A program made the position numbers and the translations under genes. 64,000 nt of DNA, taken from the NCBI RefSeq assembly GCF_058153355.1, contig NZ_CM177019.1, one strand, 5' to 3'. The notes under the pieces were generated by a model. The model ran no database searches, had not been told where the DNA came from, and saw only the letters and a program-made list of their open reading frames with translations. Positions 6,711-6,890 of this stretch are shown piece by piece (positions within the stretch are counted from its first letter, which is position 1; the number at the start of each line of letters is the position of its first letter).

Positions 6711-6851
6711 TCAAAGGACAACGGTGCTCCTCGCGCCGTTGTCATCAGACACCTCTTTCTAACCTATTTGCACATGACATGACAAAAAGATGACATGAGT
6801 TTTCTTTTTGTCTGGTTATAAAAATCAATAAATTACGCATAAATCTCGTTG

Positions 6852-6890
6852 TGTCATAAAACTGTCATAAACCTTACATATAACTGTCAC
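6852..6890 (+). promoter_or_regulatory. PhoB-binding Pho boxes of pstS promoter
   Basis: ctgtcataaaactgtcata ... ttacatataactgtcac directly upstream of pstS. Confidence 0.8.

Follow-up and report, generated by a model that had tools for sequence, protein, structure and literature searches.

Does the promoter of pstS remain an intact PhoB target when a fimbrial operon lies directly upstream of it, and do the two transcription units influence one another? The question is raised by contig NZ_CM177019.1 of NCBI RefSeq assembly GCF_058153355.1, from which we analysed a stretch of 64,000 nucleotides (the window) that contains an lpfO113/stg-type fimbrial operon, lpfABCD, followed by pstS, the first gene of pstSCAB-phoU. 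The reading at which we arrive, and to which we assign a probability of roughly 75%, combines a textbook pstS promoter, a fimbrial neighbour of long standing, a 3' end that belongs to the lpf operon itself, and a proposed distal module for PhoB and integration host factor (IHF) upstream of the promoter. Only this PhoB/IHF-type module would be new, and it would represent a minor variant of a known promoter.

The core of the pstS promoter and its gene comprise the following features:

6851..6868, plus strand: pstS Pho box 1, GTGTCATAAAACTGTCAT (consensus scan and matrix score; similarity to K-12 from 6852)
6873..6890, plus strand: pstS Pho box 2, CTTACATATAACTGTCAC, at the -35 position (consensus scan and matrix score)
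6901..6906, plus strand: -10 hexamer TATTTT, 10 bp past the end of Pho box 2 at 6890 (sequence)
6947-6952, plus strand: Shine-Dalgarno sequence AGGAGA of pstS (sequence)
6957..7997, plus strand: pstS, first gene of pstSCAB-phoU (open reading frame (ORF); NF008171, 745 bits against a cutoff of 339)

A Pho box is defined as an 18-bp element in which two 7-bp direct repeats (CTGTCAT) are separated by a 4-bp A/T-rich spacer, giving an 11-bp period (PMC4447250), and positions 6851-6890, which read GTGTCATAAAACTGTCATAAACCTTACATATAACTGTCAC, contain repeats phased in this way. When the consensus CTGTCATAWAWCTGTCAY was searched across the 64-kb window with up to three mismatches allowed, three overlapping matches were recovered, all of them within 6851-6890 on the plus strand, where 0.26 were expected and none of 100 shuffles gave three; box 1 departs from the consensus at one position and box 2 at two. 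We also scored the window with a matrix derived from the 12 Pho boxes that PMC3978041 Table S4 gives for strain EDL933; these boxes themselves score 13.1-20.8 bits. The three registers within 6851-6890 scored 20.2, 19.4 and 18.8 bits and were the top three of approximately 128,000 window positions, a ranking that is partly circular as pstS sites are included in the matrix. Box 2 stands in for the -35 element with TATTTT 10 bp further on, which is the spacing of a PhoB promoter, and a sigma-70 promoter scan of 6500-7100 on both strands found no TTGACA-type -35/-10 pair. Transcription of pstS would start near 6913-6914, as deduced from the position of the -10 hexamer, and the ORFs of pstC, pstA, pstB and phoU come after pstS, leaving the operon intact.

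Passages of PMC4448153 that cite Kimura et al. 1989 describe the Escherichia coli K-12 pstS promoter as PhoB-dependent, with two tandem Pho boxes. From 6852 to the pstS ATG the window is 98% identical to this promoter, and the four 11-bp repeats, the 10-bp gap to TATTTT, the leader and the Shine-Dalgarno sequence are all the same. The differences are small: the first base of box 1 is G in the window and C in K-12, and the inter-box spacer reads AAAC in place of the ATTC of K-12, with AAAC also found in strains that lack lpf. Across complete E. coli genomes the promoter was matched in 5,422 of 5,426, Pho box 2 is invariant in every aligned E. coli spacer, and the TATTTT -10 is kept in five genera. 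A first-pass annotation of this DNA had proposed that the tandem boxes were preserved intact, and the identity to K-12 from 6852 together with the PstS equivalog match at 745 bits bears this out. Of the two box sequences that it quoted, TTACATATAACTGTCAC occurs exactly at 6874-6890, whereas 6851-6869 reads GTGTCATAAAACTGTCATA, with G and not C as its first base. It had also placed the end of the fimbrial operon about 140 bp ahead of the boxes, and the stop codon of the last fimbrial ORF, a TAA at 6708-6710, does leave a gap of 140 bp to box 1. During phosphate limitation, phosphorylated PhoB on boxes 1 and 2 would recruit sigma-70 RNA polymerase, as is established in K-12 and expected here from near-identity, with the four 11-bp-phased TGTCA-type repeats of the two boxes taking the place of a -35 element. 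Judged by its sequence, 6851-6956 is the canonical PhoB-activated promoter of pstSCAB-phoU, and the feature that had been flagged is real, ordinary and already known.

Upstream of box 1 the likeness to K-12 ends, as the DNA on that side is unrelated. The window carries here the fimbrial operon, preceded by an insertion sequence:

1729..6710, plus strand: lpfABCD operon, lpfO113/stg type (ORFs, RefSeq names of relatives, NCBIfam)
1729-2301, plus strand: major subunit (lpfA), 190 amino acids (aa); NF011817, 380 bits against a cutoff of 203
2349-3080, plus strand: chaperone (lpfB), 243 aa; NF011818, 500 bits against a cutoff of 317
3084-5627, plus strand: usher ORF (lpfC), 847 aa; 761 bits against an equivalog cutoff of 995
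5637-6710, plus strand: adhesin (lpfD), 357 aa; best equivalog StgD, 238 bits against a cutoff of 493
21..1446, minus strand: IS4 copy in the glmS terminator hairpin, upstream of lpfA and outside the promoter (99.5% identical to IS4 elements)

Family matches of the four ORFs confirm the gene order of subunit, chaperone, usher and tip adhesin, with the subunit and chaperone scoring above their NCBIfam equivalog cutoffs and the usher and adhesin under all of them. RefSeq names of relatives that are 85-98% identical are lpfA-, lpfB-, lpfC- and lpfD-O113, the adhesin being named either lpfD-O113 or simply 'fimbrial protein'. Operons of the lpfO113/stg/lpf2 type have a published locus between glmS and pstS, at O island 154, according to passages of PMC6033998 that describe Doughty 2002 and refer to 'lpfB1'. 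This placement is also found here: pstS starts 246 bp past lpfD on the same strand, the window opens in the glmS terminator, so that glmS should lie just off its left end, and three compared loci (L002, L003 and L005) share the layout. The window thus resembles lpfO113, Stg and lpf2 operons in its four-gene lpfABCD order and its glmS-pstS locus, and differs from them in its rarer allele, an adhesin under the StgD cutoff, and the IS4 between glmS and lpfA; in O157, the lpf2 operon consists of five genes, its spacer is shorter than that of the window, and its distal sites are decayed. Over the lpfD-pstS spacer (6711-6850), identity to the window reaches 95% or more in only 17 of the 5,426 complete genomes, and the best full-length match is 98.0%.

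The cluster of LpfD sequences closest to that of the window (98%) is labelled Escherichia fergusonii, whereas identity to E. coli is 98-99% for the core genes on either side; this suggests that the lpf allele was exchanged between species. The IS4 copy at 21-1446 has the terminal repeat TAATGCC...GGCATTA and is bounded by a 13-bp target duplication, CTGCCGACGGGCG, at 8-20 and 1447-1459, and at least four complete genomes (H31-H34) have the same adjacency of IS4 and lpfA. The matrix found no Pho box above 10.3 bits in 1447-1728, the region of the lpfA promoter.

How old is the adjacency of the fimbrial operon and pstS? K-12-type genomes align with the window only from 6852, the T of TGTCAT in box 1, and on the other side K-12 similarity stops one base past the glmS stop codon. 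Because similarity stops after glmS and resumes at box 1, the 207-bp spacer of K-12 and the lpf segment of approximately 5.5 kb are alternatives between two constrained elements. Both are widely distributed. Approximately 36% of complete E. coli genomes (about 1,950-1,970, an approximate figure taken from identity bands) carry an lpfO113-type spacer. When homologues of LpfD that are 42-77% identical were followed outward, the adhesin was directly followed by pstS in all eight lineages examined, namely an E. whittamii-like lineage, two further Escherichia alleles, Salmonella enterica subsp. salamae, another S. enterica, Enterobacter hormaechei, Kluyvera and Citrobacter; the adhesins from outside Escherichia (Salmonella, Enterobacter, Kluyvera and Citrobacter) are 42-47% identical. 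The alternative arrangement, with glmS directly before pstS, was found in Citrobacter, Raoultella and Siccibacter, and the K-12-type spacer is common to these genera and Kosakonia. Conservation resumes at Pho box 1 in every spacer compared, with 19 lineages sampled in total. Since both spacer types are kept across genera, the K-12 junction at box 1 is, on this comparison, the edge of purifying selection where two old and unrelated spacer types meet, and its reading as an insertion scar is ruled out. The adjacency of adhesin and pstS, judged from its distribution, is a long-standing second layout of the locus and not the product of recent insertion. The description of the fimbrial DNA as 'foreign' is accordingly right in that K-12 lacks the operon and that the G+C content is lower in lpf (38-50%) than in pst (52-57%), and overstated for an adjacency found in about 36% of E. 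coli and in other genera. We note as a caution for the reading of genomic islands that a sharp 'island' boundary may mark selection on a promoter and not a breakpoint.

The spacers themselves differ in content. That of K-12 holds the glmS terminator and a weak array of TGTCA-like sequences in direct orientation, in which no extra site exceeds 8.7 bits, and lacks an exact IHF consensus; the window spacer has one such consensus, together with a 17.1-bit inverted Pho box and a fimbrial 3' stem-loop. In the K-12-type spacers of K-12 (L004 2380-2470), L044, L047, L048 and L049, a distal block reading ATGACAAACCGTCATCTTCGGCTAC...GTGTCATAAAA.GAAAATTTT.CTGACAT...GTCAT is present approximately 100 bp upstream of the core Pho boxes, and its 11-bp-phased TGTCA-like repeats are kept across five genera, with scores of no more than 8.7 bits in K-12 and of 11.8-13.8 in Kosakonia. 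In one genome annotated as K-12 MG1655 from Brazil (L001, NZ_CP032679.1), the pstS promoter region is directly followed by bglG; the whole pstSCAB-phoU operon is thus deleted, which points to a laboratory pst mutant.

If lpfD and pstS have long been neighbours, does lpf transcription continue into pst? The first structured element past the lpfD stop codon bears on this:

6717..6743, plus strand: stem-loop 1, with an 11-bp stem (GACAACGGTGC / GCGCCGTTGTC), loop TCCTC and no U tract (folding, approximately -18.5 kcal/mol)

Stem-loop 1 begins six bases past the stop codon, and 7 of its 11 bp are G-C. It is one of two hairpins predicted by folding of the spacer, for which the overall z-score is -4.4. 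Across 11 distinct spacers that represent five allele classes, 95.9% of cells in the alignment are paired and three pairs show compensatory changes. Wobble pairs of the G.U kind occur on the plus strand only, which argues that the strand that folds is the lpf mRNA. Stem-loops of -16 to -25 kcal/mol also lie right after the adhesin stop codon in eight of eight distant lineages, none of them with a U run, and a search of Rfam with 6400-7200 at E-values up to 1 matched no family. These comparisons indicate that a defined 3' structure after lpfD is clearly under selection, and stem-loop 1 probably marks or stabilises the 3' end of lpf mRNA. The first-pass annotation had called for terminator prediction after the adhesin gene; no canonical terminator was found, and what is there instead is a conserved, stable stem-loop without a U tract.

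The same annotation had considered it conceivable that transcripts run on from the fimbrial operon into pst. Such read-through past lpfD could add meaningfully to pstSCAB-phoU expression, for example by supplying basal Pst when the fimbriae are on, and the layout offers it some room: lpfD and pstS lie on the same strand 246 bp apart, 6500-7100 holds no canonical intrinsic terminator, and neither hairpin of the window allele has a U tract. We nevertheless consider a meaningful contribution improbable, as all the lineages examined have a stable, covarying stem-loop past the stop codon and one allele class (L013) has a scan-positive terminator in the spacer. In addition, the C-rich, G-poor stretch at 6744-6775 in the untranslated 246-nt spacer would, by its composition, suit Rho. 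The published expression data give no sign of coupling between lpf and pst. In arrays of O157 EDL933, pstS was up 47-fold in low inorganic phosphate (Pi) and no lpf gene appears in the lists of Pi- or PhoB-dependent genes, and the array paper on a pst mutant of avian pathogenic E. coli (APEC) contains no stg data. In passages of an RNA-seq report on E. coli that make Shiga toxin (STEC), the log2 change is an increase of 3.3-4.2 for lpfB1 genes and a decrease of 1.07 for phoU; pstS is not among the genes listed in those passages. Read-through from lpf into pst is therefore probably minor; the lpf transcript would end or be stabilised at stem-loop 1, and pst would be run by its own promoter.

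What, then, occupies the remainder of the spacer? Further tgacat repeats had been noted upstream of the tandem boxes. These are real, and they form a high-scoring Pho box in inverted orientation, which is accompanied by a match to the IHF consensus:

6779..6796, minus strand: distal inverted Pho box, ATGTCATCTTTTTGTCAT, at approximately -135 to -118 from the deduced pstS start (matrix score of 17.1 bits; conservation)
6823..6835, plus strand: putative IHF site, AATCAATAAATTA, an exact match to WATCARNNNNTTR, after an A tract (TATAAAA) (consensus match)

TGACA occurs at 6775, 6780 and 6791, and the last two copies constitute an exact TGTCA-N6-TGTCA on the minus strand (6780-6795, TGTCATCTTTTTGTCA). 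This exact pattern is found twice in the window, in the distal box and in Pho box 1, where 0.11 occurrences were expected and 2 of 100 shuffles reached two. With 17.1 bits the distal box ranks fourth in the window, inside the range of the reference boxes, and the next best site scores 13.9. It is near-identical to Pho box 1 of ugpB in the EDL933 set (TTGTCATCTTTCTGACAC; PMC3978041 Table S4), with which it shares the CTTT spacer and which scores 17.4 bits; the ugpB box is in activating orientation within its promoter, whereas the distal box is inverted and lies approximately 90 bp upstream of the -35 position. Among the five diverged E. coli allele classes the spacer is 41% invariant, and 18 of the 19 positions of the distal block are invariant, with a longest invariant run of 11 that only 0.18% of shuffles reached. 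Outside these classes, an equivalent inverted box is located 69-72 bp from box 1 in the E. whittamii-like lineage (13.6 bits), Kluyvera (14.1 bits) and Enterobacter (16.7 bits).

The exact IHF consensus has eight matches in the window when both strands are counted. That in the spacer starts exactly 29 bp before the TGTCAT of box 1, and it does so in 11 of 11 E. coli spacers, in the E. whittamii-like lineage and in Kluyvera; the bases that the consensus specifies never change, whereas each of the four N positions varies. K-12-type and Sakai spacers contain no exact IHF consensus. IHF has been reported as a regulator of E. coli pstS (Spira and Yagil 1999, as cited in passages of PMC4448153). In the literature that we searched, no paper links lpf or stg to PhoB or describes the distal box. 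Published PhoB chromatin immunoprecipitation work reportedly used K-12. K-12 is a strain without the lpfO113-type spacer.

The exact 19-mer CATGACAAAAAGATGACAT, searched in one genome per species, was found in three Proteus species and one Sphingomonas only; as these matches are at about chance level, it is not a widespread repeat. In the Proteus species (L008 2975-3005, L010 and L011), CATGACAAAAAGATGACAT lies in the kdsB-lpxK spacer within a palindrome, ATCAACATG...CATGTTGAT, unrelated to pst. One metagenomic contig from an unrelated organism (Ga0098069_101763; L015 1705-1840) contains the phased array CTGTCATCAAAATGTCATCAAATTGTCATCAAAATG, a Pho-box-like triple repeat; it was picked up by the anchor pattern of our metagenome search and was left out of the comparison.

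Would the distal block be conserved for a reason other than PhoB? The block overlaps a second predicted hairpin:

6781..6812, plus strand: stem-loop 2, A/U-rich (GACAAAAAGA / TCTTTTTGTC), overlapping the inverted Pho box and allele-specific (folding)

The block could be kept because it forms the 5' arm, an A tract, of an lpf terminator or 3'-end hairpin rich in A/U, and its likeness to a Pho box would then be incidental. Consistent with this, stem-loop 2 is strong in alleles of the window type (-14.9 to -19 kcal/mol, with z-scores of about -5; -19 kcal/mol and -5.2 at best) and its equivalent is strong in the L013 type (-15.9 kcal/mol), where it passes the terminator scan; L013 is the only allele with a scan-positive site. 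Weak hairpins are found in O113, isolate-68, L014, Kluyvera and Enterobacter. In O113, isolate-68, the E. whittamii-like lineage, Kluyvera and Enterobacter the hairpin is no better than shuffles, yet these five spacers all keep TGACA..TGACA. Moreover, the 5' arm shows no variation, whereas the 3' arm shifts register or decays, and the conserved bases are exactly the contact cores of PhoB at 11-bp spacing. Because the cores persist where stem-loop 2 is insignificant, the constraint would act on the DNA and not on the RNA. The hairpin as the cause of block conservation is ruled out on the same ground, and an RNA element in this place seems to us unlikely.

Still less probable is a PhoB-driven antisense promoter, in which the inverted box would substitute for a -35 element and fire on the minus strand into the 3' end of lpfD during phosphate starvation, thereby lowering fimbriae, much as the first-pass annotation had entertained an influence of PhoB on fimbrial 3' transcription. 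The box is well formed and directed at lpfD, and it is followed on the minus strand, in the window allele, by a weak TAGGTT at 12 bp. When the aligned spacers were inspected by eye, the other alleles had no conserved -10-like hexamer at 9-13 bp, the promoter scan was empty on either strand, and none of the genes that the O157 arrays give as Pi- or PhoB-dependent belongs to lpf, with the reservation that the O157 box is degenerate. As a general function this promoter is ruled out, since no -10 hexamer is conserved at that distance past the inverted box. The least credible alternative is that the distal box and IHF match are functionless, a chance likeness in an A/T-rich spacer carried along by linkage: several lineages have lost the module or keep it in degenerate form only, or never had it, and the E. 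coli alleles are linked by descent and recombination, so that conservation counts are not independent, but this view is hard to square with the gap between 17.1 and 13.9 bits in 64 kb, an invariant run of a length seen in 0.18% of shuffles of a spacer that is only 41% invariant, an IHF spacing that stays at 29 bp despite variation at the N positions, and the retention of the module in Kluyvera, with an adhesin of only 44% identity and a spacer that cannot otherwise be aligned.

The preferred interpretation of the inverted box and the IHF site is that they form a distal PhoB/IHF module of pstS. That such a module is bound and functional falls, in our estimation from the sequence comparisons, a little short of an even chance. 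An inverted PhoB site of the high-affinity type would be centred near -126 and an IHF site near -85, the latter 29 bp from box 1; bending by IHF would bring the distal PhoB dimer to the proximal ones, which may result in cooperative loading or in insulation from upstream transcription. A functional analogy is ompF-type control with its OmpR F4 site and IHF, where tandem regulator sites are proximal, a further site is distal, and IHF lies between them; the regulator is a different one, and the distance is approximately 72 bp here in comparison with approximately 300 bp at ompF. The ompF loop represses.

Several observations weigh against the overall reading and have to be set beside the evidence above. 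The distal box and the IHF site are degenerate in O157 Sakai lpf2 (where the box reads CATGAAAAAATGCTGATAT), in one Escherichia allele (L038) and in Citrobacter, and neither is present in L037 or in two Salmonella lineages, so that the module is dispensable. A metagenomic variant (L021) carries a core mutation of TGTCA to CGTCA. An inverted site at -126 could not contact sigma-70 as the proximal boxes do, and its role is speculative. With respect to the lpf 3' end, the terminator scan of 6500-7100 found no terminator-like site, and the tail of stem-loop 1 is AUCAGACA, which is not a U tract. Finally, the metagenome search was anchored on CGTTGTCATC and Pho box 1. With CGTTGTCATC as an anchor, the lower 3' arm of stem-loop 1 had to be the same in every spacer recovered by that search; the anchor does not include the compensatory pairs.

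Elsewhere in the window, a second IS4 copy (44677-46102) is present in the opposite orientation. It truncates dgoD (ORF 43665-44702), is followed by glgP (46135-48582, minus strand), and has no target duplication. None of the complete E. coli genomes covers 80% or more of 36001-60500, which marks a synteny break at which the dgo region is joined to glg/gnt; this join is probably an IS4-mediated inversion or deletion. Downstream of phoU, the region 11600-36000 contains type III effector-like genes (ShET2/EspL2 family, with 'type III effector' labels in matching genomes), after which come tnaA, mnmE, yidC and dnaA; E. coli 2013C-4282 matches best, at 98.9%.

For the biology of pstS, a different and apparently constrained region lies upstream of the gene in roughly one in three E. 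coli genomes and in several genera besides. We tentatively propose, with less assurance than for the module itself, that pstS has two old and interchangeable upstream versions, and that the module of the fimbria-linked one may alter the sensitivity or timing of pst induction or shield pst from read-through. If this is true, signalling of phosphate starvation would not be the same in strains that carry the fimbrial operon as in those that lack it. The state of the whole Pho regulon depends on Pst activity, which also has an effect on virulence in APEC, uropathogenic E. coli (UPEC) and enterohaemorrhagic E. coli (EHEC); a strain-dependent control of pstS would therefore matter, as a refinement of a system that is already known.

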